A stretch of 64,000 nt of DNA from a virus. Under the pieces are notes generated by a model that was given only the letters and a program-made list of their open reading frames with translations, was not told the DNA's origin and did no database searches. Below, piece by piece: positions 35,941 to 61,175 of the stretch; positions within the stretch are counted from its first letter, which is position 1; each line of letters starts with the position of its first letter. The position numbers and the translations under genes are program-made. The stretch is from IMG/VR virus record IMGVR_UViG_3300021963_006848, positions 33,039 through 97,038 of that record. One strand, given 5' to 3'.

Positions 35941-35955
35941 ATAAACCTTATCTAG

Positions 35956-36027
35956 TTGCGGGAGAAGGATTCGAACCTCCGACCCCAAGGTTATGAGCCT
36001 TGTGAGCTACCTCTGCTCTATCCCGCG
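35956..36027 (-). tRNA. tRNA-Met(CAT), initiator-like
   Basis: CGCGGGA...TCCCGCA-A with C1:A72 mismatch; CAAGG-CTCATAA-CCTTG. Confidence 0.9.
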
Positions 36028-36035
36028 ATATAATG

Positions 36036-36108
36036 TACTCCGTAGGGGTTTCGAACCCCTAATCTCCTCCGTGAAAGGGAGGCGACTTAACCGTTTGTCC
36101 AACGGAGC
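36036..36108 (-). tRNA. tRNA-Glu(TTC)
   Basis: GCTCCGT/ACGGAGT, CCTCC-CTTTCAC-GGAGG, AGGGG-TTCGAAA-CCCCT. Confidence 0.92.
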
Positions 36109-36115
36109 GGAATTG

Positions 36116-36498: not shown

Positions 36499-36503
36499 AA
36501 TTG

Positions 36504-36575
36504 AGCTTCCTCGAGGAATCGAACCCCGTTATCCTGAGTACAAATCAGGCGCATCACCATTTATGCTTAGGAAGC
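36504..36575 (-). tRNA. tRNA-Thr(TGT)
   Basis: GCTTCCT/AGGAAGC, CCTGA-TTTGTAC-TCAGG. Confidence 0.92.
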
Positions 36576-42007: not shown

Positions 42008-42349
42008 TTATTTAATTATTATTGTTGTTTTACTTATCTCTTTTTTAGTAACATCTTCTAGTAACAAATATAAATACGTAGACTGTATTGAGTTCGTGTA
42101 AATCTTCTTAACATTTTCCCCAAGCTGTCCTATAAATTTCTCTCTACTGATTACTTGACCGCTTTCTTTATCGACTAGTGTTAATGTATACGTTCCAGCA
42201 GATGGTAAATCAAAGTAAATTGATTGTCCGTTTACTACTCTACTTTCACCAACACTAAATATCTTTTCAACAGGTGGAGTTGGAGTTGGTAATTCTGGTT
42301 TAGTACATCCTACTAATAAAATCAACGATATGTAAAGTATGTATTTCAT
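42008..42349 (-). CDS. lipoprotein with Ig-like domain, probable paralog of its neighbour
   Basis: LVGC lipobox; YTLTL.D...GQVISRE...G.N..KIYT. Confidence 0.65.
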   Translation of the reverse strand: MKYILYISLILLVGCTKPELPTPTPPVEKIFSVGESRVVNGQSIYFDLPSAGTYTLTLVDKESGQVISREKFIGQLGENVKKIYTNSIQSTYLYLLLEDVTKKEISKTTIIIK

Positions 42350-44649: not shown

Positions 44650-46303
44650 TTACTAAGTCTATTTTGTTTCCTTTAGCATCTACTGCGTCAGATAATACAA
44701 AGTAGAATAATCCTGCAGTATTACTTAACTGTACTTTAGGAGTAAATACTAACTTATATGGAGTGCCTGTCTTAATTCTAGATGTTTTAACTTGGTCAAT
44801 AGAACCAAATGTTAACCTACCGTTTTTATCTGTTGAAAAGTTTGTGATAGTAGAACCTGCATCAAATATGATATTTTCTAAAGTTAATTTAGATTCATCA
44901 TAATTCATAATAACTTCTAATCCTGCTAGTTCCTCTTTTGTCAAAGTAGTTGTTAATACAACTTTTCCATTCTCTAATGTAGATGTTACGCTCAATTTTG
45001 CAGTTTCAACTGCTTTATTTTGATAAGCCATTACTATATTAGAAGATGTTGACATACTCTTAACAACTAATGCGTCTGTTTTATTTGCTGCATTTGTGTA
45101 TATACCGCTACTTATTCTACTTGCTATTACTGCCGGATCTGATGAATGTGACCAGTTCAAATCTCCACCCCATGCAAATACTGCATGAACTTCTTTTGTA
45201 GGTGAATCAATTAATACTTTATTTTTAACAACACCGTCTAACCAACTTTGATTAAGTAAACCACTATACCATCTTACCGAAGTTGATGTACTTGAAGGAA
45301 TCATAGCTGGTGTATCTACATTAACACCCATTACGTGTGCAAATAAGTAGTATGAATCATTTTCGCTGAATTCAGTTTTATTTTTTGTGATAAGACCGAC
45401 TTTCTTTTCTAAGTTCGGATAAGTAAAGAAGTTAGCAGTTCCGTTGATATCAGTCTGTGAGTGTCCTAAAAATGCCTTATAAGCATCAGATACAGTTACT
45501 ATGTTATTCATCCAGCTCTTTTGAAATGCTGGACCTACAAACACACCTACTGAATCACCTACTTTAACCTGTGTAGTAAATAAAGCCTCACCACTAGCAT
45601 CTAATGGTAATTGAGCAATAGGGGGTAATGACCAGTTTATATCTCCACTACCGTCGGTTTTTAATCTCATCAATTGAACACTATGATCAGTAATCGTATA
45701 TCCTTGTGGGAATAATACTTTTACTTTAAACTGAGAGGTATTACCTATTATACCGGTTAGAGATATATTTGTATTACTTCTAGTTACAGGGGAAATGTAC
45801 GTCCCATCAGTATTAATAGAGTATGCTAAGTCTAACTTATGAATATCGTTATATGTGTTCTGATCTTTTAATACAAACTTCTGAGTTGCTATATCACCAT
45901 CTATAGATGCATCGGTTCTCTGAATAGTCAACTGTCCAACGTTCCAGTCATTATTTACTGTATATGCCCAAGGGGTAGCTTGGTATTGTTGGTATAAGCT
46001 AGTAACAGCAACATTTGGTGCTGGAGTAAATGTGTAGTTATTCCATCCTGTATAGAATGTTTGAACGGATGTTCCTTGTGAGAATACTGTACTATTTGGC
46101 ACCATAGCCAAAGCTTTGTTATTAAACGAGTATCTCAACCAGAAATAACGAGGGGCTGTAGTACCTTTTGTTACAGTATACTTAACTGTTAAGGTATCAC
46201 CTACTTTCAGATTAGTTGTTGGACTAATAGTTTGGTTAACTGAAAGTTGTGCAAATGAGTTTAATGATGTAAATAAAGCTAGAATTACTAAAAGGTTCTT
46301 CAT
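44642..46303 (-). CDS. exported protein with cohesin-like domains, partial paralog of the 766-aa protein
   Basis: Signal SFA/Q; KVGDT.TV, VSDAY.AF, W.GD.N.SHS, GLE..MNYD.SKL. Confidence 0.65.
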   Translation of the reverse strand: MKNLLVILALFTSLNSFAQLSVNQTISPTTNLKVGDTLTVKYTVTKGTTAPRYFWLRYSFNNKALAMVPNSTVFSQGTSVQTFYTGWNNYTFTPAPNVAVTSLYQQYQATPWAYTVNNDWNVGQLTIQRTDASIDGDIATQKFVLKDQNTYNDIHKLDLAYSINTDGTYISPVTRSNTNISLTGIIGNTSQFKVKVLFPQGYTITDHSVQLMRLKTDGSGDINWSLPPIAQLPLDASGEALFTTQVKVGDSVGVFVGPAFQKSWMNNIVTVSDAYKAFLGHSQTDINGTANFFTYPNLEKKVGLITKNKTEFSENDSYYLFAHVMGVNVDTPAMIPSSTSTSVRWYSGLLNQSWLDGVVKNKVLIDSPTKEVHAVFAWGGDLNWSHSSDPAVIASRISSGIYTNAANKTDALVVKSMSTSSNIVMAYQNKAVETAKLSVTSTLENGKVVLTTTLTKEELAGLEVIMNYDESKLTLENIIFDAGSTITNFSTDKNGRLTFGSIDQVKTSRIKTGTPYKLVFTPKVQLSNTAGLFYFVLSDAVDAKGNKIDLVIE

Positions 46304-46773
46304 TATAAAAGTTGGTTTATTATTCCTTCACAAGTTTTTTTCAAAGCAGCTGAGATGTCTGAATCAGATATCTTACCTCCTTTGTCGAGAATAACAACAG
46401 ACGTAACTAATGTCTTAGCCTGTTCTTTTATAATAACGCTTTTCTTTTTCTTACCGTTTTCGTATAACGTACCCTTTGCAATGATTTCAGTGATATCGGA
46501 AGTTTTTCCGTATACTGCAATCTGTGTAGTCACTTTTTTAACATCAAAATATAGCAACTCAACTTGTAGAGTTATAGTTGCATTTGGTGCTAAATCAAAA
46601 CCTTTATCTTGAATAACTTCTTCTAGAATATTTTTTACTCCAAAAGAAAGGTCTCTGCTTCCGGCATGAGGACCCATTAAAATTTTATTTTCTACGTCTC
46701 CTACTTTAACTGCATTTTGAGCATATAAAGTACTATTGAATATCAATAGAAAACTTATTAACAAAAATTTCAT
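46303..46773 (-). CDS. exported protein, possibly CsgG/TolB-N-like fold
   Basis: Signal LYA/Q; GVKNILEE, C-terminal SAALKK helix resembling the 240-aa protein. Confidence 0.55.
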   Translation of the reverse strand: MKFLLISFLLIFNSTLYAQNAVKVGDVENKILMGPHAGSRDLSFGVKNILEEVIQDKGFDLAPNATITLQVELLYFDVKKVTTQIAVYGKTSDITEIIAKGTLYENGKKKKSVIIKEQAKTLVTSVVILDKGGKISDSDISAALKKTCEGIINQLL

Positions 46774-46873: not shown

Positions 46874-47617
46874 TTATGAGTAGCAAACTACACCGTATTG
46901 TGTATAGTAGGAACAACCACCATACGTGGTTACACTGCCTATACGAGCACATACTGTTGTATTATTGAATGGGCCTAAGAAAATTTGAGTAGTAGATCCA
47001 AAACAAGGTGTATACTGTACCCATCCTCCGCAAGATCCTCCGTTTAGTTGATATAGAGAACAACCTAAAGTGGGGGCAGGATAGCTTGCTGGCGGTGCAA
47101 CAGGTGATGGTGTTGGGCTAGGAGTAACTGGGCTAGGAGTTACAGGAGCAGCTGTTGGTGCAGCTGTTGGTGACGGAGTAACTGGTGCGGCAGTAGGAGC
47201 TGCTGTTGGTGAAGCTGTAGGACTAGCTGTTGGTGAAGCTGTCGGGCTAGGAGTAACTGGGCTAGGAGTAGGAGATTCTGATGGTGGTGCAGTAGGAGCA
47301 GGAGTAACTGGTGCAGGAGTTACTGGAGCTGGTGTTACCGGTGCAGCAGTTGGTGCTGCAGTTGGTGCTGCTGTAGGAGCAGGTGTAGGTACTATAGAAT
47401 ACACAAATAAATCTTCTGTACTACATTTACCTGTACTTTTAACATATAACACGTGGTACAGAGTATCTACATCTATATAATACCCGTCTACTAACTGCTG
47501 TCTTGTTACTCCAGTTGCAATTCTATTAGGGGCTGATATAGCTGTATGATATACATCAAAAGGTCCTACTGTAGATCCTGCTGTTGTAATCTGTATTTTA
47601 AGTGTTCTTGTTGCCAT
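46874..47617 (-). CDS. Pro/Thr/Ala-repeat protein with Cys-rich C-terminus, putative virion protein
   Basis: N-terminal GPF.VYHT domain, [15 protein letters not shown] repeats, no signal peptide. Confidence 0.75.
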
Positions 47618-47624
47618 TTAACTA

Positions 47625-48398
47625 CTATTGAATAGCTTCTATTTGACCTGATCCTGGAGCTGGTGTTTCACCTCCATAACCTATAGTTGGTGCGAATCCG
47701 CCTCCTCCTCCGCCTCCACCTCCGGTAGGTGCTGGTGCAGTTGGTGCAGGGGTTGTTGGTTCAGGTGTAACTGGACTAGGTGTTACAGGAGATGTATATG
47801 TTGTAGGTGCTGGAGTAACAGGGCTAGGTGTTACTGGTGAAGCAGTTGGTGCTGTATAAGTAGGAGATATAGTTGGTGGTGCTGCTGGCGCTGTTGTTGG
47901 TTCCGGAGTTACCGGAGCAGGAGTTACTGGTGAAGGAGTTACAGGAGCAGGAGTTACAGGAGCAGGAGTTACTGGTGAAGGAGTAACAGGAGCTGGAGTA
48001 ACTGGTGCTGCTGTTGGTTCCGGAGTTACTGGTGCTGGAGTAACTGGTGCTGGAGTAACTGGACTAGGTGTAGTTGGAGCTGCTGTTGGAGCCGCTGTAG
48101 GACTAGGTGTAGGAGCGGCAGTTGGACTTGGAGTCGGAGCTGCTGTAGGTGCAGCTGTTGGTGCTCCTGTTGGTACAGTTAAATTAGCTACTCCTGTATT
48201 ACCACATACACCATTACTAACTACATAGAAGTCGTTTGTACCATCTGGTACAGTTATATTAAATGGAGTAGTCATCTGGGTTCTTGTAAGTCCAGAGATT
48301 ACTAGATTAGACGGATTATTTGGATCAGTATGATAGAGTGAAAACGGACCTGCGTCTGTTCCTATCGATGTTCCTGTTATAGTTACTGTTATTGGCAT
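47625..48398 (-). CDS. Pro/Thr/Ala-repeat protein with paralogous N-terminal domain
   Basis: GPFSLYHT...G.TR.Q...YV.S.G.C, ~150 aa of repeats, poly-Gly. Confidence 0.75.
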   Translation of the reverse strand: MPITVTITGTSIGTDAGPFSLYHTDPNNPSNLVISGLTRTQMTTPFNITVPDGTNDFYVVSNGVCGNTGVANLTVPTGAPTAAPTAAPTPSPTAAPTPSPTAAPTAAPTTPSPVTPAPVTPAPVTPEPTAAPVTPAPVTPSPVTPAPVTPAPVTPSPVTPAPVTPEPTTAPAAPPTISPTYTAPTASPVTPSPVTPAPTTYTSPVTPSPVTPEPTTPAPTAPAPTGGGGGGGGGFAPTIGYGGETPAPGSGQIEAIQ

Positions 48399-48441
48399 CT
48401 TTCTTTATTTAATATAACGATTTCTAATAAATAGTCAAACT

Positions 48442-48657
48442 TTAAATTGCTGAAAGTATCTCAGCTTTTTTAGCTATGTATTCCTCTTCTGTTGCAGTTA
48501 TGAAAGGTCCTTGTGCTAATACATTATCGTATAATGTAGAATTACCTCCATCATGTCTGATTAACATCTGACCTTCTTTGACTAAACATACTGTCAAGCT
48601 TTTTGTTTCGTCGTCTAATTTTATTACTCTATCTGAGTCTTTCAAGTATTGTATCAT
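48442..48657 (-). CDS. hypothetical protein
   Basis: 71-aa ORF between the repeat genes. Confidence 0.65.
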   Translation of the reverse strand: MIQYLKDSDRVIKLDDETKSLTVCLVKEGQMLIRHDGGNSTLYDNVLAQGPFITATEEEYIAKKAEILSAI

Positions 48658-48670
48658 AGTTTAATTTATT

Positions 48671-51298
48671 TTAAGGTTGTGGCACATCCCCACAATTTAT
48701 ACAGAAGTAATCACATGGTTCAAATTGTGCTTGACATCCGAATCCACAATCACAACTGTAAGTGCCTCCTGTTGGAGGTGGTATGTAGATTGGAGCTGCT
48801 TGTGGTGCTGGGGTATTTCCACAGAAGGCCATACATTCTGCATAAGAAGTAAATTCTCCTGCTCCTGGATTAGAATAACAATCTCCTGCTCCGTTACATG
48901 TCCAGTCGTAAGTTACTACTGGAGCAGCTGTTGGACTTGCTGTTGGACTTGCTGTTGGTTGAGCTGTAGGAGCTGGATAAGGAGCTGGTGTTACCGGGGC
49001 TGCTGTTGGACTTGCTGTAGGTGCAGGAGTTACCGGTGCTGCTGTTGGACTTGCTGTAGGTGCAGGAGTTACCGGTGCTGCTGTTGGTGCGCTAGTTGGA
49101 CTAGGGGTAACAGGAGCAGCAGTTGGTTCTGCAGTCGGACTAGGGGTAACAGGAGCTGCTGTTGGTGCACTAGTTGGGCTAGCAGTGACAGGAGCTGGAT
49201 ATACCGGACTAGGTGTAGTTGGTGCTGCTGTTGGAGCTGCTGTAGGACTAGCCGTAGGTGACGGAGTCACAGGAGCGGCAGTTGGAGCTGCTGTAGGTTC
49301 TGCAGTTGGTGACGGAGTCACAGGAGCGGCAGTTGGAGCTGCTGTAGGACTAGCAGTGACAGGAGCTGGATACACCGGACTAGGTGTAGTTGGTGCTGGT
49401 GTAACTGGTGCACTGGTTGGTGCGGCTGTTGGACTAGGTGTAATTGCTATACAGTATTGACTACATTCTTCTAAGGTACTATATACTCCAATTCCTGGTC
49501 CCATATACGTACATTGACCATCTACGCAATCCCAATCAAGTGATGCTGCAAAAGGAGCGGCTGTTGGACTAGCAGTTGGTGCTGCGGTTGGTTCAGCTGT
49601 AGGTGCCGGTGTTACTTCAGTAGGTGCTGGTGTTGTAGGAGATGGTGTTACTGGTGCAGGGGTACTAACTGGTGCTGGGTATCCAGGAGCTGGTGTTACT
49701 GGAGCTGGTGTTACTGGAGCTGCTGTTGGTCCTGGTGTTGGTGCAGGAGTTGGACTAGCAGTTACAGGAGCTGCTGTTGGTTCAGCAGTAGGACTTGGTG
49801 TCGATACTGGTGCTGGATAACCTGGAGCTGGTGTTACTGGTGATGGTGTAGTAGGAGATGGTGTTACTTCAGTAGGTGCTGGTGTTACTGGTGAAGCGTA
49901 CGAAGGACTAGTTACTGGAGCCGATACTGGGCTAGGAGTAACTGGTGACGGTGTTACTGGTGCAGGAGTAGTTTCTGATGGTGCTGAAGTTGGTGCTGCT
50001 GTCGGTGCTGCATAAGCAGGACTGGATACAGGAGCTGATACCGGGCTTGGTGTTACAGGGGCTGCTGTAGGAGCTGGTGTTGGACTTGGAGTTGTTAAAC
50101 ATCCGCCATTAGTAGTACAAGTACCACCTTGTTCAAATATGTAAGCTCCGCCTGTTACTTCTACTCCTCCTTGAATAAAGACTGGTATATTATATGGAGA
50201 AGTTAAGCTTACGCAAATTCCAGCAGTATACGTACCGTCTCCATTATTTATAGTTTCTAAACTATTGATTAACTGATCTGTTACTATATCATCATAAGAT
50301 GTTCTATATCTTACGTATAAGTCATTAGGTACAGAGCTATAAGTTATTGTAAAGCAATTACCTGTAGGTAATACTGGAGCTGGTGTTGGACTAGCAGTTG
50401 GTGCTGCGGTTGGTTCAGCTGTAGGTGACGGAGTCACAGGAGCTGGTGTTACTGGAGCTGGTGTTACTGGAGCTGGAGTAACTGGAGCATTAGTTGGTGC
50501 TGCTGTAGGTTCTGCAGTTGGTGACGGAGTCACAGGAGCTGGAGTTACCGGTGCGGCAGTAGGTTCAGCAGTTGGTGACGGAGTCACAGGAGCTGCTGTT
50601 GGAGCATTAGTCGGTGCTGGTGTTGGACTAGGAGTAGGAGCCGGTGTTGGACTAGGTGTTGGTGCAGCGGTAGGAGCGCTAGTTGGTGCTGGTGTTGGGG
50701 CAGGGGTGTTTAAGAGAGCAATAAACTTAATATCACATTCTGCACCTGTTATATCTAAAGTACAATCTCTTTCAAATACAGCATATAGAGTATTAATACT
50801 ACTACTATAAGGTACGTTAATTAAATGGTTGGTTGAATAAGTAGGAAAGTTAATATCAAATGCAGCGGCTCCTTGAGGGCGTGCTGAGTTCCATTTTCTA
50901 CCTGTTACCCATTTCTTAAGTACAAAGCCTGCTGATCCGGTAGCTAAATAACTAGCAGATGGATAAGGTTCATACATAAAAACTTTATTAGATCCAGAAA
51001 TACCACCTTCGTACTGTTGTGCATACGAAGAAGTAAGTGCCGGACCTACTAATCTAACAGCTCCTGTTGGGAACATTACTGCAGATCCATCTGTGTCTGA
51101 ACCTGTTACAAATGCATTGAAGTAGAAGCCCCATTTACCGCGAAAATAATCCATATCATCTTCGACTGTATAAAAGCCTTGTCTAGCTGGCCAGACATGT
51201 GAATGCAGACCCTGTAAATCATTCTCAACAAGAAAATCATTTAAGTGATCGTCAACATTTATTCCACTACCGGTATTGGGGAACTGATAACTTGGCAT
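48671..51298 (-). CDS. large Pro/Thr/Ala-repeat (mucin/extensin-like) protein with Cys-rich modules
   Basis: 875 aa; three repeat tracts separated by Cys domains; no signal peptide. Confidence 0.8.
48915..50710. repeat. coding tandem repeats of 12-15 nt units with higher-order duplications
   Basis: e.g. near-identical ~49-nt blocks at 49179 and 49350 (171 nt, 57 codons apart); GGTGACGGAGTCACAGGAGC recurs. Confidence 0.85.
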
Positions 51299-51335
51299 CT
51301 ACCTATACTAATTAATTATATTTTATAAATAGCAA

Positions 51336-52307
51336 TTAAGACTCTATTTTACTTGCTATCCATTTATAAGTTTCAGTTAAACCTATATGTAGAGGTTGAG
51401 ATGGTGCCCAACCTAACTTCTCTTTAATCAAAGTGTTGTCTGATGTTCTACCCCTCACTCCTTGTGGACCTGGTATGTTCTTAATTTCAATATTCTTATT
51501 TGCTAGACTAGCTACTAACTTAGCTAACCCGTTCATTGAGATAATCTCTTCTGATCCTATATTGATAGGTTCTTTATAGTCCGAATTCATCAATCGTCGA
51601 ACACCTTCTACAGCTTCATCTATATAAAGGAACGAGCGGGTTTGTAAACCATCACCCCACACTTCGATTTGACCATTTGTAGGAGTTTTAGCAACTTTAC
51701 GACATATTGCTGCTGGTGCTTTCTCTTTTCCTCCGTCAAATGTACCTTCTGGTCCAAATATATTATGGAAGCGAGCGATTCGTATATCTATACCGTAATT
51801 TCGGTTATAAGTTGCGTATAAACGTTCAGAAAATAGCTTTTCCCATCCATACTCTGAATCAGGTTGTGCTGGATAAACTGAATCTTCTTTACAGTTCGGA
51901 TTTTCAGGGTCTAACTGGTTATGCTCGTTATAAACACAAGCAGATGATGCATAGAATATCTTTCTAACGTTTTTCTTTTGTGCTTCGTTTAAAACGTTCA
52001 GATTTATTAACATAGAGTTGTGAACTACATCTGCATCATGATCTCCGGTGTTAATATAGCCTGCTCCTCCCATATCTGCTGCTAATTGGTAAACCTCATC
52101 AAAGGGTTCTTGGAAAGGTGCGTACATTATAACCGATGTCTTCAAAGGATCTCGCAAATCAGCAATAACAAAGTCATCTGCTGTTGAATCTGAGAAGTCT
52201 GGGTATTTAATATCTACTCCTCTCACCCAGTATCCTTCTGATTTTAATCTTGTAACTAAATGTGAACCGATAAAACCACCGGCACCTAATACTAATGCTG
52301 TTTTCAT
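51336..52307 (-). CDS. GDP-mannose 3,5-epimerase-like SDR
   Basis: GAGGFIG, LAADMGG.G, SSACVY, YGWEK, RFHNIFGP.G...GGKEKAPAA.CRK, WGDG.QTRSF. Confidence 0.88.
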   Translation of the reverse strand: MKTALVLGAGGFIGSHLVTRLKSEGYWVRGVDIKYPDFSDSTADDFVIADLRDPLKTSVIMYAPFQEPFDEVYQLAADMGGAGYINTGDHDADVVHNSMLINLNVLNEAQKKNVRKIFYASSACVYNEHNQLDPENPNCKEDSVYPAQPDSEYGWEKLFSERLYATYNRNYGIDIRIARFHNIFGPEGTFDGGKEKAPAAICRKVAKTPTNGQIEVWGDGLQTRSFLYIDEAVEGVRRLMNSDYKEPINIGSEEIISMNGLAKLVASLANKNIEIKNIPGPQGVRGRTSDNTLIKEKLGWAPSQPLHIGLTETYKWIASKIES

Positions 52308-52311
52308 TTTA

Positions 52312-53874
52312 TTATTTTTTAATATAGTAATCTTCTAATACTAATCCGTCCATTTGTGTGTTGTTCAACATCCAAACTGCATCTTTGTAGCTGTTTAGTA
52401 TTGGCTTACCTCCTATGTTAAAGGAAGTATTCAACAACACACCTACACCTGTTCTTTCATGTACTAAAGTTAATAAGTTGTAAAGGAATGGATTCTGTTC
52501 TTTAGTAACTGTCTGTACTCTAGCTGTTCCATCTACGTGGGTAACAGCTTTCAAGACATCTCTGTATTCTTCTCTAACTTTAGGACAAAAGGACATCCAT
52601 CTAGACTCCTGATTGAATTCAAAAAACTTGTTTACATCCTCTAATCTAACCACTGGTGCGAAAGGTCTGTAGTATTCTCTATTTTTTACCTTAGCATTCA
52701 AAGTATCTTTCATACCCGGTAGGCAAGGATTACATAAGATACTTCTGTTACCTAACGCTCGTGGTCCTACTTCTGATCTACCTCTAACTACTCCTATTAT
52801 TCTACCTTTTATAATCTCATCTGCTAAAGCTTCAGTAACTTTTTCTGCTTTATAGCTTTGTACGTAGTCTTGAAGTTGAAACTTATCCCAAGCTTCCGGA
52901 CCTGCGTATGTTGCATCAAAGGCTTCTTTAGGTTTAAGAAAATCTAACATGAATCCTAATGAAAGCCCACAGTCACTTGGATTTGGTGGTATAAAAGTCT
53001 TTGTTATGTTGTTTAATTTTGTATTATTCAGAATATTTAAACCACATCCTCCAGCGATTGCTAAATTATTATTAGCTTTTGCTATATCATCTTTACTTAC
53101 TTCGAAAAAAATATCTTCAAAAACTTTTTGAGAAGTGGCTGCTATATCTAGCTCTAGTTGACCACTAAGTTCATCTGGGAATCCTAGAGCTTCTTTCATT
53201 TTATTATAATTAAACTCTCTTAATTCCCTAGTACCGTGGTGTCCTGTATAAAACTCTCTCATAACAGTAATAAATTCTTCTCGAATATTTCCATATCCAC
53301 ATAATCCCATCAACTTACCTGCATAAACTAGGTAAGCTTTAACCCAATCTTCACGTTTAATAGAAGAACAATAATGTCCTATTTCAGCATACTTTTCTCC
53401 GATATTATAATCGTAATTCATCCAAGAAAATTTAACTCCTTCTTCTCTAGTAGCTGTATAAAAATTAAAACATCCATCGTTTCCTCCGCCGTCGTAGGTA
53501 ATTATTACAGCCTCCTGTAGGTCTGATTGGTAAAAAGCTCCGGAAGCATGACCAAACTGGTGAAATACTTCTACTAATTTCTTAGCATTAAAAAAAGATA
53601 AAAACTTACTTTCACTTCCTAAGTAGTTTATATAGGTACGGGTATCTTCTTGATTGCAGATTAAATGTTCGTATTCTTCTGCTCCGTACTTATCTTTAAA
53701 ATACTTTAGAATATCTTTTATTACATTGAAAGGTTCGTGAGCAGGTAAATACCAGATTAAACCTCCGTTTTTGATATTAGTGTAACGTTCTACTTCTAAT
53801 ACTTCTAATATCTTCCCATCTTTAGCTAAAGTAAGAGAAGCGTTATGTCCTGAATATAGTGCTAAATTATACAT
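52312..53874 (-). CDS. O-carbamoyltransferase, NodU/CmcH family
   Basis: HNAS, HQFGH, DGGG, GKLMGL.GYG, E.GPRALGNRS, RPFAP, LNTSFN. Confidence 0.92.
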   Translation of the reverse strand: MYNLALYSGHNASLTLAKDGKILEVLEVERYTNIKNGGLIWYLPAHEPFNVIKDILKYFKDKYGAEEYEHLICNQEDTRTYINYLGSESKFLSFFNAKKLVEVFHQFGHASGAFYQSDLQEAVIITYDGGGNDGCFNFYTATREEGVKFSWMNYDYNIGEKYAEIGHYCSSIKREDWVKAYLVYAGKLMGLCGYGNIREEFITVMREFYTGHHGTRELREFNYNKMKEALGFPDELSGQLELDIAATSQKVFEDIFFEVSKDDIAKANNNLAIAGGCGLNILNNTKLNNITKTFIPPNPSDCGLSLGFMLDFLKPKEAFDATYAGPEAWDKFQLQDYVQSYKAEKVTEALADEIIKGRIIGVVRGRSEVGPRALGNRSILCNPCLPGMKDTLNAKVKNREYYRPFAPVVRLEDVNKFFEFNQESRWMSFCPKVREEYRDVLKAVTHVDGTARVQTVTKEQNPFLYNLLTLVHERTGVGVLLNTSFNIGGKPILNSYKDAVWMLNNTQMDGLVLEDYYIKK

Positions 53875-54793
53875 TAACTAGTTTTTTATTTATAAAATCA
53901 ATACCTGCATAATCTGCGTATTGTTGTAATGTTCTCTGTGTTCCTAATCCATACTTACCTAAATCTCCTCCTTCTATTAACATCCTAAGCCTTTCTATTG
54001 CAGCTCTATGTCTTGTATGTGCCTCGATGCTAGGTGCTGTATTGTAGTGTTTTTTAGGTACTGCATTATGTGTTCTATGCCATGCAACTATTTGCGAAGG
54101 TGTATATAAGTCGTAACCGTGAGTATAAGATCTAATAGCTAAAGCAAACTCTTCCCCAGTATAGTAGTGTTCTGGATCTTGCTCAACCTTGACTACCCAT
54201 TCACCGTCTGTAAATATAAAACCTCCATATAATAAGATAATACTTTTTGGCTGAAATCCAATGTTTATTTCATTTTCATATCCCCCATAGTTAGGCCAGT
54301 ATTCTGCTGTTAAGCTTGCAATCTTAGGAATGTTCATTCTATCTAAATTATTAAAATGTCGATATGAATGATCTACTCCAGTTTCATCATCTCTATGATA
54401 AGGAGGTGGTAAGAAGGATAGTAATGGTTTTATTCCTGTAGAAGCTAGAGCTTCATAATCTTTTATAAGAATCTCATCCCAATCTTGTATAAACCGAGTA
54501 TGTGAATCTACCTGTAAACTATATTTCTCTCCATTATAGTTAGTCTGTGCAATCTGTCTCGCCCAACATCCACCTTTTGATTCTTCATAAGGAAATTTTA
54601 TAACTTTTAAATTATAAAAATCTACAAGATCGTCTATACAACTCTTTCCTGTTTTAACTTTATCGTCGTATTGGAGGCACACTGAGAAGTATAAGTTTTC
54701 AGGATACTTAGCAGTCCTTATACAGTCTAAGATTGTAAAACGTATTTCATAATCTAAGTAACTAGCAATAGATATAAAAATTGTATTTTTCAT
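53867..54793 (-). CDS. GT60-like (Skp1 hydroxyproline / polypeptide GlcNAc-transferase-like) glycosyltransferase
   Basis: TIFISIASY.D, G.CWAR, LQVDSHTRF..DWD, GGFIF, GEE...R.YTHGYD, YGLG.QRTL..Y. Confidence 0.85.
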   Translation of the reverse strand: MKNTIFISIASYLDYEIRFTILDCIRTAKYPENLYFSVCLQYDDKVKTGKSCIDDLVDFYNLKVIKFPYEESKGGCWARQIAQTNYNGEKYSLQVDSHTRFIQDWDEILIKDYEALASTGIKPLLSFLPPPYHRDDETGVDHSYRHFNNLDRMNIPKIASLTAEYWPNYGGYENEINIGFQPKSIILLYGGFIFTDGEWVVKVEQDPEHYYTGEEFALAIRSYTHGYDLYTPSQIVAWHRTHNAVPKKHYNTAPSIEAHTRHRAAIERLRMLIEGGDLGKYGLGTQRTLQQYADYAGIDFINKKLVNV

Positions 54794-54795
54794 GT

Positions 54796-55620
54796 TTAAT
54801 TTTTATATAGTTCTGTAAAAAATATTCCCCATTCCCCTACCCTGTTATATTGGTGTACTATGCAAAAAATATCTCTAGTCTTCTTATTTATAATTTTATC
54901 AGATTCTTTGATCGGTACCCCGTACTTATATGCGTTTGCAAATCCCCATTCGTAAAATACATTACTTGGACCTGCTACTCCGCAGTGGACAGCTAACCCG
55001 CTATCACTATTAACTATTTGAATACGATCTGTTAAAAAAGTAGAAAGTAGTGCTACATTTAATGCAGGCTGATCGGCACTTTGAAAATTTTGCTTTCTCG
55101 TAGCAACATACATATGTAGTAGGATATTAGTGATGGGGTGGGGTCTACCGAAGATAATTCCTGAGTTAATTATTTCTCTATTGTATAACTCTTGGGAAAA
55201 CTCAGTATGGTCTGTTTCTATAGCTCTCTTATTCCAAGGTTCATCTTTATGTTCAATACCTTCTGAGGTAAGTATTATATCTTTTGTTGCATTTTTTAAA
55301 AACCATTCGAAAGGATCTCTTTGAAAAACTACATCTACCGTATCTGTTAAAAGAACTATATCTTCCTGTGTTAAGTTCTTCAAGAATTCTCTAGCTTTGA
55401 AATGTCTTTCCCACTTACATATATTAGTGTCTGCTTCGTCTTTAGTAGGGCAATGTACTAACTTTACCCCTAGTTTTTCTAGTTCTGATATACTCCCAGG
55501 AATTTCTTGATCTAATACTAAAAGTACTATTTGACAATTGCAATACTTTAAAGCACTTTGTATCCAACCATTAATCCTTAGTTTATTACAATGTTTAATA
55601 GATCCTATCAAGTAGTTCAT
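54796..55620 (-). CDS. GT-A glycosyltransferase (DV.FQ.DPF / HQY.R type, PLOD-GT-like)
   Basis: LLTDTVDVVFQRDPF, NSGIIFG, DQ..LN, IVHQYNR. Confidence 0.7.
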   Translation of the reverse strand: MNYLIGSIKHCNKLRINGWIQSALKYCNCQIVLLVLDQEIPGSISELEKLGVKLVHCPTKDEADTNICKWERHFKAREFLKNLTQEDIVLLTDTVDVVFQRDPFEWFLKNATKDIILTSEGIEHKDEPWNKRAIETDHTEFSQELYNREIINSGIIFGRPHPITNILLHMYVATRKQNFQSADQPALNVALLSTFLTDRIQIVNSDSGLAVHCGVAGPSNVFYEWGFANAYKYGVPIKESDKIINKKTRDIFCIVHQYNRVGEWGIFFTELYKN

Positions 55621-55621
55621 G

Positions 55622-57166
55622 CTATAGTTTTTTAATATAATAGTCTTCTAATAAAAGAGCATCCATTTGTTTATTATCTAAAACCCAAAGTGCATCTTCA
55701 TACGTATTCAGAATTGGTTTTCCTGCTATATTAAAAGATGTATTTAAAATTACTCCTATACCTTTTTGGTTGTGCATTTCAGTCAGTAAGTCGTATAGAA
55801 ATTCATTTTGTTTTCTTGTGACCGTCTGTACTCTAGCAGTTCCGTCAACATGAGTAATAGCTTTTAAAATATCTTTATATTCGTCTTTAACTTCAGGACA
55901 AAAAGACATCCATCTTGATTCTTTATCCCAGTTAAAGTACTTATTTACATCTTCTAATCTAACTACTGGTGCGAAAGGTCTATAGTATTCCCGTCCTTTC
56001 ACTTTAGCATTTAGTGTATCTTTCATCTCTCCAATAGTTGGATCACATATGATACTCCTATTTCCTAAAGCTCTTGGACCGTGCTCTGATCTATCTCTAA
56101 CTACACCAACTATTTCTCCTTTTATTAATTTCTGAACTAGTTCTGCTATTTCAATTTTAGTACCTTTTCTCTCATAAAGTAATTTAGGAAGTAACTTTCT
56201 ATCCCAAACTTCCGGACCTAGGTAAGTTGTATCTACCGGTATGTGTGGTCTCATTTTGCTACAAACTAACCCTACTGCTAATCCTGTATCGTTTGGATTA
56301 GGAGTTACAAAAGTCTCTCTCTTCAGAGCTAGTTTAGTGTTTAGTAGTATATTTAACCCACATCCTCCGGTAATAATAAGCGGTAAGTCGTTATGGAGTT
56401 CTAAGATATTTCTTGTTTCTTCTTCAAATAACTGCTCAAAGACATACTGATTAGTTGCAGCTAAGTTCTTTGCATAGTTACCTTCATATCGTATCTGTTC
56501 CGACTCTATGTTGAATATCTTCATAAAGCGAGTTAATGCTTCACTTATATTATCTGTTGTATTAGAAGCATAGAATTCTCGAAAAGGTTGTACTAAGGAA
56601 TCATCTACTTTTCCAAAACCAGCTAATCCCATTAATTTTCCAGCATATACTAGATTACCTGTGTAAATCCATTCTTGTTTTATATCTGAGATGAAGTGAG
56701 CAGGCATCATATAAGAAACAGCGTAGTCTTTTTTACCCACGTATATCTTCTCTATAGGAGTTTCACTTCTTTTATCTCCTAAGTAAATGTTAAAGAAACC
56801 TTCATCACTTCCTCCATCAAAAGAAATAATTAAAGCTTTCTCAAAGTTTGATTGGTATAATCCGGAATATGCATGAGCTTCGTGATGAGGTAACCACTGG
56901 TAATTACCGGCTGGGAATATCTTCCACATCTCTTTATCTACCGAGTTATATACTACATTATCGTATTTTTCTACTCCGTATTTTGTCTTAAAATAGTCTT
57001 TAATTTCTGTAAGTAGTTCAACTATATTCTCATGATGTCCCCAATAAAAGAAAGCAGCATTTTTTACATTTATTAATCGCTCTAACTCTACTACTTCTAA
57101 AACTTCTCCTTTGTAGGAAATAGCTAAGCTAGCATTATGCGACCCAAAAAAACCTAAATTAAACAT
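55622..57166 (-). CDS. O-carbamoyltransferase, NodU/CmcH family, paralog of 52312-53874
   Basis: HNAS, HHEAH, DGG, GKLMGLAG.G, GPRALGNRS, RPFAP, LNTSFN. Confidence 0.92.
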   Translation of the reverse strand: MFNLGFFGSHNASLAISYKGEVLEVVELERLINVKNAAFFYWGHHENIVELLTEIKDYFKTKYGVEKYDNVVYNSVDKEMWKIFPAGNYQWLPHHEAHAYSGLYQSNFEKALIISFDGGSDEGFFNIYLGDKRSETPIEKIYVGKKDYAVSYMMPAHFISDIKQEWIYTGNLVYAGKLMGLAGFGKVDDSLVQPFREFYASNTTDNISEALTRFMKIFNIESEQIRYEGNYAKNLAATNQYVFEQLFEEETRNILELHNDLPLIITGGCGLNILLNTKLALKRETFVTPNPNDTGLAVGLVCSKMRPHIPVDTTYLGPEVWDRKLLPKLLYERKGTKIEIAELVQKLIKGEIVGVVRDRSEHGPRALGNRSIICDPTIGEMKDTLNAKVKGREYYRPFAPVVRLEDVNKYFNWDKESRWMSFCPEVKDEYKDILKAITHVDGTARVQTVTRKQNEFLYDLLTEMHNQKGIGVILNTSFNIAGKPILNTYEDALWVLDNKQMDALLLEDYYIKKL

Positions 57167-57167
57167 A

Positions 57168-59921
57168 TTACCTTTTTAACTTTATATTAAAATAACTTTC
57201 TAAATCTTCTACCGTTCTAACATGTGTTTGTTTCAACAGAAAATCATTTACTAATTCTCGTGCATAGTCTTCTATATAGTACTTACCGTTGTGTTCTCTA
57301 TAAGGTTTATCAGTTGCTGCTACCTTAAAGTTATAATTATGCCATACTGTAGCTAAAGATGTTACTTTTAAATTCCACCCTTTCAAATAACTTAAAAAAG
57401 TTTGAAAGTCTTCTTCTCCATTAAACCTAATGTTATCAGGTAATCTTACTTCTTCTATCCACTGTCTTCTAGTAAATATGAATCCTGCTGCTGCCCATCG
57501 AGTATCAACTACTTCGTAATCATTCAAGGTAGGTAGGTTTTCAGCTATACATCTATTATCATCCGGACTTGTTTCTAGTAAAAATTTCCTAATACGTAAA
57601 GGTGTATTATTAGGTTTATTTAAGTACTCCTTTTCGTAATCTGGAACGTCGAAATGATTAGGATAGGTTGTTAGTATTACTTTGTCTTGCTCAATACTGT
57701 TATACTGGTTTATTAGTATTGCATCCCAGGCTTGTCTAAATCTACTATGTGAATCTACTTGAAGAAAGTAATCTTCGTTTCTCACAAGCTCATTCTTTAT
57801 TCTATTTCTTGCATATACAACCCCTTTAGCTTGCTCTTTAGGTGTGAAAATAATTCTCAAATTTGGAAAGTTATACTCTTTTAATTTAGCATAAGCTTCT
57901 TCTGTGTCTTGTATATTTACTCCTACAAAAACTCTACTAGGGTCAATAGCTTCTTCATATAAACTTTTTAAAGTATCTATAAGTTGAGAATCGCAGTAAC
58001 TTGCTATTGATACGAATATGTTACCATTTCCAAAACTCCAACTATCGTTATACTCTCTAAACCAGTTACCTTTAAAATGACATTCTGCAATAAATGGTAT
58101 TTGATGTCCTAGGTTAAATTTTTCAGTATTAATATAGTAATTTTTATCCTCAATGTCAGACATATACCCTCTCATTCTATAGATGTAAGAAGATAGTGTT
58201 GAATGACTATTACCTATAAACTTAATACTACGAGTACATATGAACTGCTCAATAATAGGAATCCAGTTATTATCAAATTCATTATAGATACTAACTTGAT
58301 TCTTTAAATCTTCATAGAAAGAAACTCGATAAAGACCCATGAGAGGTCTAAAAAATTCTTTATCCCTGTGGTCTGTTGCAATGTAAAGCTTACTTCCCTG
58401 AGGGATTATGTCTTTTATATTCTCTAAAATTTGCTCACAGCTAATAAATAATTCCTTATATTGGAAGTCATTTCTACGAATATGAATAGAGTAGTAATCT
58501 CTATCTCCTAACTTATTAATAAACTGCCAAGCTAAATCAAAAATATCTGTACGATATCTTACATGCTTAGCGATAAGTTTTTTGATCTCTACATCTAAAC
58601 TTGTAAATAAAGTCTGGTGAGTAACACCTAGAAGATTAGATTCAAGAAAAATAAATTCTTCATCTGTAAAGTATTCTTCACTTCTTAATACTGGGCGGTG
58701 TTTATGAAACTTAACAGGTGGGTTAATTTTTTCAAAATTCATGACGTGTAAAACTGCATCATAATCTAATACTTTGCATATACTTTTTACACTGTCGTAA
58801 TTATGTTCTAGTTCTTTTTCTTCACAGAACTTACTGAACGGTATAGAAATTACTCCTAAATCTGAAGTATCAAAAAAGGATTCCATACTAGAGTTCCCTT
58901 CTAGTAAGTACATTTTATATTCTGGTGTCAGAACAAGTTTTCGATTAGTTAAATATGCTATACATACTGCTAACTCTAACGACATTCTTATATTGTTGAA
59001 ACCACCAGGCCAAGGTCTAAATAAAATATAACCTTTGCTGCCATCGTAAAATTTAAAGATGCTAGAAAAATCCCACTTATTATAGTATATGTAATCTGTT
59101 CTATACTGATCTACGCTCGTAACCATCTTATTACTTACTTCGCTTATTATATTTGATAAATCGTATTTTTGTGTTTGATCAAAGGTATGATCTTGCTTAA
59201 AGAACAATTTGTTTCCTTGCTTATCTAAAATTACATTAGGGTAGTGTATTATACTTCCTATTGTGGACCTACCGGTATCGTTCCATGCAGTACAGGTTCC
59301 AATATCCTCAACTAAATCAACTTTTATATTAGAATCTTTAATTGCATAGTCCAATCCCCACATTTCTGCTTCCCATCTTCCTTCTTTCTTTCTGATCTGC
59401 TCACAATACTCTGTATATTTTTTGTAAAATTTCTTTAGAGTATTAAACTTCAAAGCAAATGGGTACATTATCCCTTGTGCATTATGAATATCTTTTTCTC
59501 GATCTTCCCATCCGTTTAGTGGAACAAAGTGAATAAACTTTTGACCGATAATATGATTGTCTTCTAATTCAAAATCAACTGCTTTAGTAAACAGCATATC
59601 TGGGTCCAGGAATAATAACTTATCATTATCTTGGAAGTAGTTATTTTCGCATAACCATTCTACAGATTTATATTTGTTAGGGATACCACCCCACCAGTCA
59701 TCGTTAGCTGTTTGCCAATTGTGAGCATAGTCTGGTTGATCTATTACTATAGCGTCAGATAAAAAACTAAAATCTGGATTTTCATGTCTGTGTCCGTAAT
59801 CTCCAGAGAGTAGTATAACTAACTTACCTTTTTGACCTACCTTCTTTAAAGACCAGTGTAATAGTTTTAACTGCCATGCTTGATACTCACATCTACTAGT
59901 TCCGACAACAATATAGTCCAT
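57168..59921 (-). CDS. three-domain glycosyltransferase: HPAT/SGT1-like, O-fucosyltransferase-like and GT60-like
   Basis: N: Y..WQ...L..S..K.GQ.G....LLS, NK...V.WL, LDPDM, W.AEM.G; middle: GGFNNIRMSLE, H.RR.DF, YIATD, EQ.IC, FIG...ST.S; C: IFVSIASY.D, QVDSHSRF, AAGF.F, GEE. Confidence 0.82.
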   Translation of the reverse strand: MDYIVVGTSRCEYQAWQLKLLHWSLKKVGQKGKLVILLSGDYGHRHENPDFSFLSDAIVIDQPDYAHNWQTANDDWWGGIPNKYKSVEWLCENNYFQDNDKLLFLDPDMLFTKAVDFELEDNHIIGQKFIHFVPLNGWEDREKDIHNAQGIMYPFALKFNTLKKFYKKYTEYCEQIRKKEGRWEAEMWGLDYAIKDSNIKVDLVEDIGTCTAWNDTGRSTIGSIIHYPNVILDKQGNKLFFKQDHTFDQTQKYDLSNIISEVSNKMVTSVDQYRTDYIYYNKWDFSSIFKFYDGSKGYILFRPWPGGFNNIRMSLELAVCIAYLTNRKLVLTPEYKMYLLEGNSSMESFFDTSDLGVISIPFSKFCEEKELEHNYDSVKSICKVLDYDAVLHVMNFEKINPPVKFHKHRPVLRSEEYFTDEEFIFLESNLLGVTHQTLFTSLDVEIKKLIAKHVRYRTDIFDLAWQFINKLGDRDYYSIHIRRNDFQYKELFISCEQILENIKDIIPQGSKLYIATDHRDKEFFRPLMGLYRVSFYEDLKNQVSIYNEFDNNWIPIIEQFICTRSIKFIGNSHSTLSSYIYRMRGYMSDIEDKNYYINTEKFNLGHQIPFIAECHFKGNWFREYNDSWSFGNGNIFVSIASYCDSQLIDTLKSLYEEAIDPSRVFVGVNIQDTEEAYAKLKEYNFPNLRIIFTPKEQAKGVVYARNRIKNELVRNEDYFLQVDSHSRFRQAWDAILINQYNSIEQDKVILTTYPNHFDVPDYEKEYLNKPNNTPLRIRKFLLETSPDDNRCIAENLPTLNDYEVVDTRWAAAGFIFTRRQWIEEVRLPDNIRFNGEEDFQTFLSYLKGWNLKVTSLATVWHNYNFKVAATDKPYREHNGKYYIEDYARELVNDFLLKQTHVRTVEDLESYFNIKLKR

Positions 59922-61175
59922 TTATTGAGGTACAAATTTATAATCTGCTAATGTATAATGTAAAAAGAAATTTCTAAAGAATTCTCCTTCAAAAGGTTCA
60001 ATACGTCCATGTTTATTAGTAGCAGATTCATATAGAATCATTTCCCCTGGTTCTGCATAAACTTTATGCCATCTACCTAAATGGTCTTGAATATCTAATG
60101 GCCAATCTCTATCTACCTGCTTATCTACTATTACTATAGATGATATGTGGTGAGTTACTAAAGTATCTGTATGTGGTTCTAGTATAGCCCCTCTTTTATA
60201 AGATCTGATACCGTAAATCCATTTCGGTACTAAACGTTCTTTATTACCTATAAACTCTTCGTGGATAGGTTGTAACTCTTCTGCAATAATCTCTCTAATA
60301 CGGGTAAAAGCATCCATACTAAAGATTTCTACCGGTGCATTTCCTTGATTATCGTGTATAAAATCAGTAATACCGTTCCAATGTTCTGCTCGTACTGTAG
60401 GTTTCAGTAAGTTGTATGCTTCTGTAATCAACTGGAAGGTCTTTTCAGGTACTTTTACAACTTTAAATCCTAGTTCAGAAAGCTTTGGTAAATCTTCTTT
60501 CTTTGAAAATACTTTTTGTACTGGTTGCTGTGGTTGTGTCATTTCTTGATATTCTTTTGCAAGTCTAGCATCTTCAGCACTATTGAATACATTTTCTCTA
60601 AACCATTTTGTAATAATTACTTTTCTACCTTTTCTTACAGGTAAACCTGCATGTAAAGCGGCTGAGTTTTCAGTTCCTGTACCGTTAGAGTTTTTCCAAA
60701 CTACTGCAGTACCTTTTACTGGTGTGAATGTCTTTTGTAAGGTAGGAAAATCTGTTTCACCTCCTTCTTCAACATCATTAAGGTATATCATAAACGTCCA
60801 TGTTCTTTGGCCGCTAGATAAACAATGGTTATGGTATGCTTCTTTACCAAAAGCATCTTGGTGGTGTCTAAATTCTTGACCTACCTCATATATTTGACCT
60901 TGTGTTGGTTCTGAATAAGGAGCTTCTATTCCTAGTTCTATATACATTTTTTGATTAACATTACTGATAATCGGATCTGTATCATGTAAAACTGCTGTAG
61001 AACTAGTACGGCCTTCATCGTATTTTATAGATTGGGTTCCACTGCCTGCTACGCTTGATCGAACACTTCCGTGTTCTGTTAGTCTTACAATATGATCACA
61101 TTCTTCGTTCGTTAAGAACTGAGGGATTGTGAATATTTCCAATCCATGGCTGTTTTCTATATATACTCTTTCCAT
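59922..61175 (-). CDS. prolyl 4-hydroxylase fused to a second 2OG-Fe(II) dioxygenase domain
   Basis: FLT.EEC, RTS, Y..GQ.F..HQD, QR..T.MIYLNDVEEGGET.FP, HAGLPV..G.K...TKW; second domain HTD...HGR...R. Confidence 0.88.
   Translation of the reverse strand: MERVYIENSHGLEIFTIPQFLTNEECDHIVRLTEHGSVRSSVAGSGTQSIKYDEGRTSSTAVLHDTDPIISNVNQKMYIELGIEAPYSEPTQGQIYEVGQEFRHHQDAFGKEAYHNHCLSSGQRTWTFMIYLNDVEEGGETDFPTLQKTFTPVKGTAVVWKNSNGTGTENSAALHAGLPVRKGRKVIITKWFRENVFNSAEDARLAKEYQEMTQPQQPVQKVFSKKEDLPKLSELGFKVVKVPEKTFQLITEAYNLLKPTVRAEHWNGITDFIHDNQGNAPVEIFSMDAFTRIREIIAEELQPIHEEFIGNKERLVPKWIYGIRSYKRGAILEPHTDTLVTHHISSIVIVDKQVDRDWPLDIQDHLGRWHKVYAEPGEMILYESATNKHGRIEPFEGEFFRNFFLHYTLADYKFVPQ

Follow-up and report, generated by a model that had tools for sequence, protein, structure and literature searches.

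The window analysed here is a 64,000-nucleotide stretch (positions 33,039 to 97,038) of the IMG/VR virus record IMGVR_UViG_3300021963_006848, which belongs to a large phage not in culture. The window forms the final 64 kb of a 97-kb record with an estimated completeness of approximately 54%, and all of its genes are on the minus strand. From position 61175 down to 46874, eleven open reading frames (ORFs) follow one another in the same direction with intergenic gaps of -8 to +43 bp. The block begins with a 2-oxoglutarate (2OG)-Fe(II) oxygenase of the prolyl 4-hydroxylase (P4H) type and a fusion of three glycosyltransferase (GT) domains, continues with two O-carbamoyltransferases, two further GTs and a GDP-mannose 3,5-epimerase (GME), and ends with three proteins built from Ala-Pro, Thr-Pro and Ser-Pro repeats with one small ORF among them. 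A preliminary description of this DNA had proposed a contiguous block of hydroxyproline (Hyp)-rich glycoprotein enzymes encoded with their own substrates, and all eleven ORFs were found on the minus strand where it had placed them. A scan of the window for promoters and terminators returned signals no higher than the shuffled expectation; thus, the case for an operon is made by gene packing.

The first gene of the block (59922..61175, minus strand) encodes a 417-amino-acid (aa) two-domain oxygenase that matches PF13640 with an E-value of 5.5e-17. By sequence, the N-terminal domain (N-domain, approximately residues 16–197) is a collagen/plant-type P4H. When compared with solved P4H structures from B. 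anthracis, human (C-P4H), PBCV-1 and Chlamydomonas (PDB: 5iax, 7zsc, 5c5t, 2jig), it produced E-values from 3e-24 to 2e-16, with the PBCV-1 and Chlamydomonas enzymes at 2.2e-17 and 1.6e-16, respectively. The Fe(II) triad, consisting of an HxD motif (HHQD) and a distal histidine (LHAG), and the 2OG-binding lysine at +10 coincide in the alignment with the catalytic residues of these enzymes, and the earlier assignment of a prolyl 4-hydroxylase is upheld by these matches. Its predicted activity is the hydroxylation of peptidyl [A/T/S]-Pro to 4-hydroxyproline.

A second oxygenase domain with its own HxD...H motif at approximately residues 215–417 had been overlooked. An AlphaFold2 model of this C-terminal domain (C-domain), calculated from 22 homologues, had a predicted local distance difference test score (pLDDT) of 96. 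In a Foldseek search with the model, the top 35 matches were PHD-type, and PHD2, DdPhyA (PDB: 6t8m) and the Pseudomonas PPHD led with template modelling (TM) scores of 0.57–0.60. A VIA-align comparison gave Z-scores of 12.9–15.4 in which an uncharacterised oxygenase (15.4) and HalB (14.5) were interspersed with PHDs (14.6–12.9); DdPhyA itself aligned with a TM score of 0.60 and a Z-score of 12.9. From the modelled fold, the C-domain is likely a prolyl-hydroxylase-like oxygenase of the PHD/P4H kind. The HxD and histidine are kept in both domains of 13 of 14 homologues, and those of the C-domain in 14 of 14, while the N-domain of the Paraglaciecola P4H has lost its HxD. The two-domain form is abundant (1195 matches) and conserved in both phage and bacterial loci.

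The second gene (57168..59921, minus strand) encodes a 917-aa triple GT fusion that matches PF10250 (1.9e-24) and PF11397 (6.6e-39). From Pfam and motif analysis, the protein may be considered in terms of an HPAT-like GT-A domain (residues 1–290, DPD motif), an O-FucT-like domain (residues 298–587, HIRRND motif) and a GT60 domain (residues 634–898, DSH motif). PF10250 corresponds to the GDP-fucose protein O-fucosyltransferase superfamily (GT65/68/106); the O-FucT-like domain scores 87.3 bits against a cut-off of 31.5, with POFUT2 matched at 7.8e-5, and all 37 aligned sequences retain its residues H480, R482 and D485. In the fusion-family alignment, the DPD motif of the HPAT-like domain and the GT60 metal motif (D723, H725) are likewise invariant. 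Both GT60 domains encoded in the window exceed the cut-off of 21 bits (scores of 162.7 and 134.8) and contain the sequence QVDSH. At the family level, the HPAT model PF23452 is matched by 11 of the 37 fusion-family members with a best E-value of 5e-7; one of them, P0008, lies above the curated threshold (26.2 bits, cut-off 23.9).

At least 171 homologues of the fusion were identified, some with additional GT2, GT_PLOD, DUF5672 or carbamoyltransferase domains. The homologue P0025 unites the triple GT and a carbamoyltransferase in one chain, which ties carbamoylation to the same pathway. A search of cultured phages for the fusion found none, producing only single-domain matches in Synechococcus, Xanthomonas and Stenotrophomonas jumbo phages.

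The remaining two GTs are single-domain proteins. The first (54796..55620, minus strand, 274 aa) is a GT77-type GT-A enzyme that matches PF03407 (1.2e-8; score 35.7 bits, cut-off 22). It had been called PLOD-like; however, the PLOD-GT model PF25342 is not listed for it at E ≤ 0.01, and a comparison with the GT_PLOD domain of the homologue P0044 was marginal (E = 0.023), so that the GT77 assignment is used here instead. The second (53867..54793, minus strand, 308 aa) resembles polypeptide N-acetylhexosamine transferases, contains the DSH motif, and is the expected second GT60 (PF11397, 2.1e-47).

The two O-carbamoyltransferases are of the NodU/CmcH type, and both contain Carbam_trans_N and Carbam_trans_C domains. 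Carbamoyltransferase 1 (CT1; 55622..57166, minus strand, 514 aa) matches PF16861 at 1.2e-61 and PF02543 at 1.2e-17, and carbamoyltransferase 2 (CT2; 52312..53874, minus strand, 520 aa) matches the same families at 2.1e-63 and 3.9e-19. Since their scores with the NodU model (CT1, 1.3e-49; CT2, 3.6e-46) are both far below the equivalog cut-off, they are members of the family and not NodU itself. The last enzyme (51336..52307, minus strand, 323 aa) was correctly named as a GME, matching the Arabidopsis enzyme (PDB: 2c59) at 1.9e-97 and 329 bits. The next sugar-nucleotide family, UXS, is 70 orders of magnitude weaker (1e-26, 97 bits). The enzyme is predicted to supply GDP-L-galactose/GDP-L-gulose, and GME co-occurs with the O-FucT-like domain in most of the phage lineages, in Paraglaciecola, and in the cyanophage S-SCSM1.

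As described previously, three repeat proteins follow the enzymes. Repeat protein 1 (48671..51298, minus strand, 875 aa) consists of an N-terminal globular domain and [A/T/S]-P tracts at residues 194–314, 399–585 and 616–796, with small Cys-containing modules between and after the tracts. Its N-domain is conserved in close relatives, where it directly follows GME. This domain matched no Pfam or PHROG family, its AlphaFold2 model was unusable (pLDDT = 45, from a shallow alignment), and the ESM Atlas gave no usable lead. In repeat protein 2 (47625..48398, minus strand, 257 aa), a 70-aa N-domain precedes 158 residues of repeat and a poly-Gly tail. Repeat protein 3 (46874..47617, minus strand, 247 aa) also has a 70-aa N-domain, followed by a 115-residue repeat tract and a C-terminal Cys-rich β-type module. 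The N-domains of repeat proteins 2 and 3 are paralogous (37% identity, E = 2e-11), and in a language-model search that of repeat protein 3 was placed near virus-only clusters of 72–77-aa proteins (score 0.92–0.94). The 71-aa ORF between repeat proteins 1 and 2 (48442..48657, minus strand) is 86% identical in the relative L003 and has no family match.

In total, repeat proteins 1, 2 and 3 contain 489, 158 and 115 repeat residues, of which 31–34% are Pro. Each Pro is almost always preceded by Ala, Thr or Ser, and the sequence PP occurs only once or twice per protein. With contiguous prolines nearly absent, the Ser-Pro3-5 motif of extensins is not present and the earlier term "extensin-like" was discarded; the repeats resemble those of arabinogalactan proteins (AGPs) and mucins. 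Tandem DNA repeats underlie the protein tracts and are the cause of a local rise in GC content and a flip in GC skew. From a direct reading of the translations, no N-terminal hydrophobic signal was found in any enzyme or repeat protein of the block, in agreement with the earlier claim that signal peptides are missing. This supports a cytoplasm shared by the enzymes and their substrates.

The organization of the block was compared among relatives. In contigs with RNR genes 97–99% identical to that of the window, the order RNR, P4H, fusion, CT, (GT77), GT60, CT, GME and repeat gene is kept wherever the contig reaches. A profile scan added 34 viral loci, with fusions of 35–64% identity. Among these, at least five further phage lineages, with fusions 38–52% identical, have repeat genes that abut the enzyme cluster. 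The repeat ORF is 65–329 bp from the cluster in L021, L025/27/35/39, L024, L046 and L048 and approximately 1 kb away in L051. In these loci it is on the side of the cluster opposite to that seen in the window; thus, the linkage has outlasted rearrangement. L045 has a cut repeat ORF whose end is 27 bp ahead of the fusion gene. Counting one locus per lineage, 8 repeat loci were found in 50 kb of near flank (within 2 kb) compared with 10 in 350 kb of background, where approximately 1.4 were expected (Poisson P ~1e-4). Rather than occurring independently of repeat genes in related genomes, an outcome that the preliminary description had allowed for, the enzymes are repeatedly linked to them in phages and in bacteria.

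Across lineages, the repeat proteins share an architecture and not a sequence, being composed of small globular, often Cys-rich modules joined by [X-P-T/S] linkers. Pfam and PHROG searches with their globular parts in six lineages identified no family except the function-unassigned phrog_1084 in the relative G001. In the L048 repeat protein (7000–8556), (APTP)n linkers separate three copies of an internal globular module, and the protein ends in a collagen-like GPPGPPGPPGPPGVPGEP tail.

A scan of a genome collection identified bacterial loci in which the double oxygenase is accompanied by the fusion or by an HPAT-like domain. These belong to Azotimanducaceae (a 4.3-Mb chromosome, GC 0.53), Paraglaciecola (a scaffold, GC 0.40) and Myxococcota (a contig, GC 0.65). 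A stand-alone GT60 is also present in the first two, and the Azotimanducaceae locus additionally encodes a sulfotransferase, GT25-, GT92- and GT10-type domains, and an MBOAT protein. In all three loci a PT-repeat ORF is 0.6–1.7 kb away. Read directly, the N-termini of these bacterial repeat proteins present an RR motif (RRDFVTK, TRRDVLQ, ARRSALKK), a hydrophobic stretch, and AxA, and thus look like Tat-like export signals. Such signals fit a modification that takes place in the cytoplasm with subsequent export of the finished protein.

A Microthrixaceae metagenome-assembled genome (L078) was dropped from the Tat argument since its repeat protein contains a PqqD/RRE domain and its high GC content leads to spurious Pro-rich frames. 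In L078, the PT-repeat ORF (8183–8806) has PqqD/RRE at its N-terminus (PF05402, 7e-7) and adjoins an oxygenase C-domain homologue, a GT60, and an HPAT-like domain. This composition hints at a recognition element in the style of ribosomally synthesised and post-translationally modified peptides in one bacterial version of the system.

Some members of the block appear to be more variable than others. The GT77 gene is absent from L002–L004, L015 and L037. In L036 and L037, which have RNR genes 97–99% identical to that of the window, the GT60 and CT2 pair is only about 50% identical to the window's pair and lies between flanks that are about 90% identical. The gain and loss of GT77 and the GT60–CT2 allele swap look like the cassette exchange of O-antigen and surface-glycan loci. 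A related gene set also occurs in the cultured Synechococcus phage S-SCSM1 (L020, MK867354, 102203–111294), where a 2OG oxygenase and an O-FucT are followed by a homologue of the window's C-domain. Further genes of S-SCSM1 encode a carbamoyltransferase, mannose-6-P isomerase, GMD, GFS, and GME, and there are three 2OG oxygenases overall.

From the enzyme families, their catalytic motifs, the tight block and the conserved linkage, the best explanation is a pathway that modifies repeat proteins. It is fairly likely that this pathway operates in the cytoplasm and acts post-translationally on the phage's own Pro/Thr/Ala/Ser-repeat proteins. In the proposed sequence of events, the double oxygenase, with its collagen/plant-type N-domain and PHD-like C-domain, would first hydroxylate Pro in [A/T/S]-P motifs. 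The two GT60 domains would then start O-glycans on Thr/Ser or Hyp, and the HPAT-like domain would act on Hyp, or on Ser like its GT96 relative. The O-FucT-like domain would add L-galactose (6-hydroxy-L-fucose) from GDP-L-galactose, a donor that the phage GME could make from host GDP-mannose. The GT77-type enzyme would extend the chain, and the two NodU-type enzymes would O-carbamoylate the sugars. The products would be heavily glycosylated, extended linkers that join small globular and Cys-rich modules and are freed at lysis.

These products are most probably virion appendages, a location inferred from the gene context of G001, a complete 172-kb relative. In G001, a 461-aa repeat protein is encoded within the head–tail module, between the large terminase and tape measure genes, as is a very long repeat ORF that runs off both ends of the contig, and the repeat proteins are beside ORFs that match virion or baseplate PHROGs. 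The "virion fibres" of the preliminary description are therefore reduced to what the context in this one complete relative suggests. The long G001 ORF is present as two pieces (L065, 7039–11916; L057, 1–4416) of at least 1626 and at least 1471 aa, and contains repeated β-rich modules with a match to a proprotein-convertase P-domain. Since the contig ends share a duplicated segment, its true length is uncertain.

Several observations weigh against the pathway as proposed. The donor sugars, the acceptor residues, and the order of the steps are predictions from sequence. In the window's own copy of the fusion, residues 1–290 gave no match to the HPAT model PF23452 at E ≤ 1; of the HPAT/SGT1-like, O-FucT and GT60 fusion originally described, the latter two domains stand, and the first is detected in 11 of 37 homologues and not in the window copy. 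The Pfam TAT_signal model, which is short, did not match the bacterial repeat proteins. With respect to the virion, no virion family was matched by those window proteins that were scanned, and a search of the record (approximately 54% complete) for a large terminase identified none, by which the structural module is probably in the missing part. A review of chloroviruses (PMC7019647) mentions an unpublished analysis in which no Hyp was found in PBCV-1 virions despite an active P4H. The linkage also has exceptions. Two phage lineages, L030–34 and G001, have no repeat gene within 8–10 kb of the cluster: in L030–34 none was found in the whole 51-kb contig (31% complete), and those of G001 are at a distance from its enzymes. 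In addition, repeat linkers occur in phage proteins away from such clusters. Finally, neither a family search nor a protein search identified a P4H in G002 (166.6 kb, 89% complete).

The G002 genome keeps a repeat protein, GME, the fusion, GT60, and two carbamoyltransferases, and its GME adjoins the fusion where the P4H is found in other lineages. Its repeat protein is very rich in Thr and Ser, with (TPS[IV]T)n and (VTPSP)n repeats. Given this P4H-less genome and the Paraglaciecola N-domain without metal ligands, Thr/Ser glycosylation is probably the core of the pathway, and Pro hydroxylation is probably an add-on that is present in most lineages and missing in at least one. With regard to the Hyp/Thr O-glycosylation of the preliminary description, the link between enzymes and repeats is conserved; the obligatory Hyp is not retained.

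Taken further, these same observations lead to an alternative in which glycosylation is mucin-type and confined to Thr and Ser, while the oxygenase does something else or only stiffens a polyproline-II linker without sugar. The label "hydroxyproline glycoprotein" would then be wrong and the link to the substrates would hold. G002, both in its gene content and in the composition of its repeat protein, is what such a scheme would predict, as is the Paraglaciecola N-domain, and Thr is the residue modified by the GT60 enzymes of Dictyostelium and T. cruzi. For GT96, which is sister to the HPAT family (GT95), the acceptor is Ser (PMC8012813). However, most phage lineages have the double oxygenase directly upstream of the fusion, three bacterial phyla have it nearby, and its catalytic residues are conserved. 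The repeats present one Pro in every three residues, in A-P, T-P and S-P contexts that plant and viral P4Hs accept. A pathway confined to Thr and Ser is thus considered unlikely, though it deserves to be kept in mind.

Two other explanations dispense with the repeat proteins as substrates, and both are disfavoured by the presence of transferases of the polypeptide type, as characterised GT60, HPAT and O-FucT members act on polypeptides, and by the repeat linkage that reaches into bacteria. The genes could be auxiliary metabolic genes for the host envelope that remodel the host's lipopolysaccharide, capsule or glycoproteins during infection, perhaps as a barrier to superinfection, with the repeat proteins as unrelated neighbours. 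S-SCSM1 provides some encouragement for this explanation since it has a similar set of genes (three 2OG oxygenases, O-FucT, carbamoyltransferase, GMD, GFS and GME) with no repeat gene annotated in the 19 kb viewed. Furthermore, GME and carbamoyltransferases serve polysaccharide pathways too, three signal-peptide proteins are encoded just downstream of the block, one of which has a C-type lectin domain, and in cyanophage reviews (PMC3037559) carbamoyltransferases and 2OG oxygenases are counted among the host-like genes whose role is unknown. Still, the block encodes neither a membrane protein nor any flippase, polymerase or undecaprenyl-phosphate-linked transferase, and the adjacency of repeat genes is well above chance and kept after rearrangement and in unrelated bacteria, making an envelope function improbable. 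Alternatively, the oxygenase, transferases and carbamoyltransferases might build glycosylated or carbamoylated bases in the phage DNA. Neither oxygenase domain is of the TET/JBP type, both being P4H/PHD-like, no hydroxymethylase is encoded in the block, and the bacterial loci pair the same enzymes with repeat proteins that carry RR-type export signals; DNA hypermodification is for these reasons very improbable, even though the phage does invest in DNA modification (QueC is encoded at 36957–37796 of the window), many phage GTs act on DNA, and a TET-associated GT family is weakly matched by P0102 (E = 0.0025) and by one alignment member (E = 0.00021).

The rest of the window offers some context for the repeat-protein modification block. 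Directly downstream of the repeat genes is a trio of proteins (46303–46773, 44642–46303 and 42349–44649, minus strand) with Bacteroidota-style Sec signal peptides. The signal peptides of neighbouring window proteins are of the Bacteroidota type, which suggests a Bacteroidota host for the carrier phage. In the 766-aa member of the trio (42349–44649), a C-type lectin domain was identified (PF00059, 1.6e-5), and the C-terminus is cohesin-like. Both this protein and the 156-aa member have homologues approximately 7 kb from the P4H–fusion pair of G004, a 51-kb relative. A secreted lectin encoded by a phage beside a glycoprotein pathway may be connected to it. A 450-aa ORF (38503–39855, minus strand) was flagged by a composition filter as a potential repeat substrate and was rejected since it is a signal-peptide protein in which a poly-Pro/Ser tract is joined by a long, KE-rich region of low complexity (Lys/Glu/Thr); its C-terminal half is β-rich. 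Five tRNA genes and one tmRNA gene are clustered at 33214–36575 on the minus strand (ARAGORN). A search for near-identical DNA among deposited phages returned no match.

A broader interpretation may be put forward tentatively, and with more doubt than confidence. Phages and several bacterial phyla might share a complete cytosolic pathway for Pro/Thr-repeat glycosylation of the type known from eukaryotes, in which the double prolyl hydroxylase is followed by transferases of the HPAT-like, GT60, and O-FucT-like types, with decoration by L-galactose and carbamoyl groups. In bacteria the finished product would leave the cell by Tat, while phages would mount it as variable glycan-coated virion appendages. 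The plant hydroxyproline-rich glycoprotein (HRGP) and protist Skp1/mucin pathways would then have their prokaryotic counterpart, and perhaps their source, in this system. Hyp- and mucin-type O-glycosylation by P4H, GT95/96, GT60, and GT77 is regarded as eukaryotic, belonging to plants, algae, and protists, and the block would extend this range. With enzymes, sugar-donor supply, and substrates together in 14 kb and no membrane steps, it is also a compact system.

If correct, the proposal would describe a new class of phage surface chemistry that varies in the manner of an O-antigen locus, as judged from the swapped alleles of near-identical phages. It would account for the 2OG oxygenase and carbamoyltransferase genes of aquatic phages, which have long been unexplained, and would offer a route to glyco-engineered proline-repeat linkers in bacteria. 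It would also bear on the origin of the cytoplasmic Skp1 and the plant HRGP pathways. The bacterial repeat proteins with RR signals raise the separate possibility that cytoplasmic glycosylation precedes export by Tat. Phage S-SCSM1 may serve as a culturable test bed.

A search of full-text literature, with most subscription journals outside its coverage, identified no account of a pathway of this kind from either phages or bacteria. To our knowledge, glycosylation of phage virions is known only from a few mycobacteriophages and involves unrelated enzymes. Mycobacteriophages glycosylate their own virion proteins with their own GTs; however, these GTs are of other families and act on the C-terminal tails of capsid and tail-tube proteins, and unlike the block described here they are accompanied by no hydroxylase, epimerase or carbamoylation.

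Among viruses, a close likeness is to the chlorovirus PBCV-1, which like the phage encodes a P4H of the same family along with Pro-rich repeats. The PBCV-1 enzyme (vCPH, PDB: 5c5t) uses Pro-rich viral peptides as substrates (Eriksson et al. 1999, as cited in PMC7019647). In contrast to the phage, PBCV-1 infects a eukaryotic alga, and no dedicated Hyp/Thr-glycosyltransferases are linked to its P4H. The mucin-type GT60 polypeptide α-N-acetylglucosamine transferases of protists are of the same family as the two phage GT60 domains and have Thr/Pro-rich acceptors, but they are Golgi enzymes.

The HRGP pathway of plants and green algae employs P4H, HPAT (GT95), SGT1 (GT96), and the GT77 arabinosyltransferases (PMC8012813), and its targets are AGP or extensin repeats. 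The phage shares the structural class of the P4H, a GT77-family enzyme and, at the level of the fusion family, an HPAT-family domain, and its repeats share the non-contiguous A-P, T-P and S-P motifs of AGPs. Where the two differ is in the missing secretory route, as the phage enzymes have no Golgi type-II anchor and the substrates no signal peptide, and in the missing Ser-Pro3-5 motif of the extensins. The phage also adds GT60, O-FucT-like, carbamoyltransferase and GME functions, and its P4H is dispensable in one lineage.

The Skp1 pathway of Dictyostelium and Toxoplasma glycosylates a Hyp by means of the P4H PhyA, Gnt1 (GT60), PgtA and AgtA (GT77). Like the phage block, it has soluble cytoplasmic enzymes, a prolyl hydroxylase with GT60 and GT77, and a fucosyltransferase-type step, and the model of the phage oxygenase C-domain resembles DdPhyA. 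While the Skp1 pathway targets one Pro of Skp1, the presumed targets in the phage are hundreds of Pro and Thr residues in repeat tracts. The fucosyltransferases differ as well, being GT74 in the Skp1 pathway and PF10250 in the phage, which adds a two-domain oxygenase and carbamoylation. By analogy, the phage block appears to work like the HRGP and Skp1 pathways and is a member of neither.

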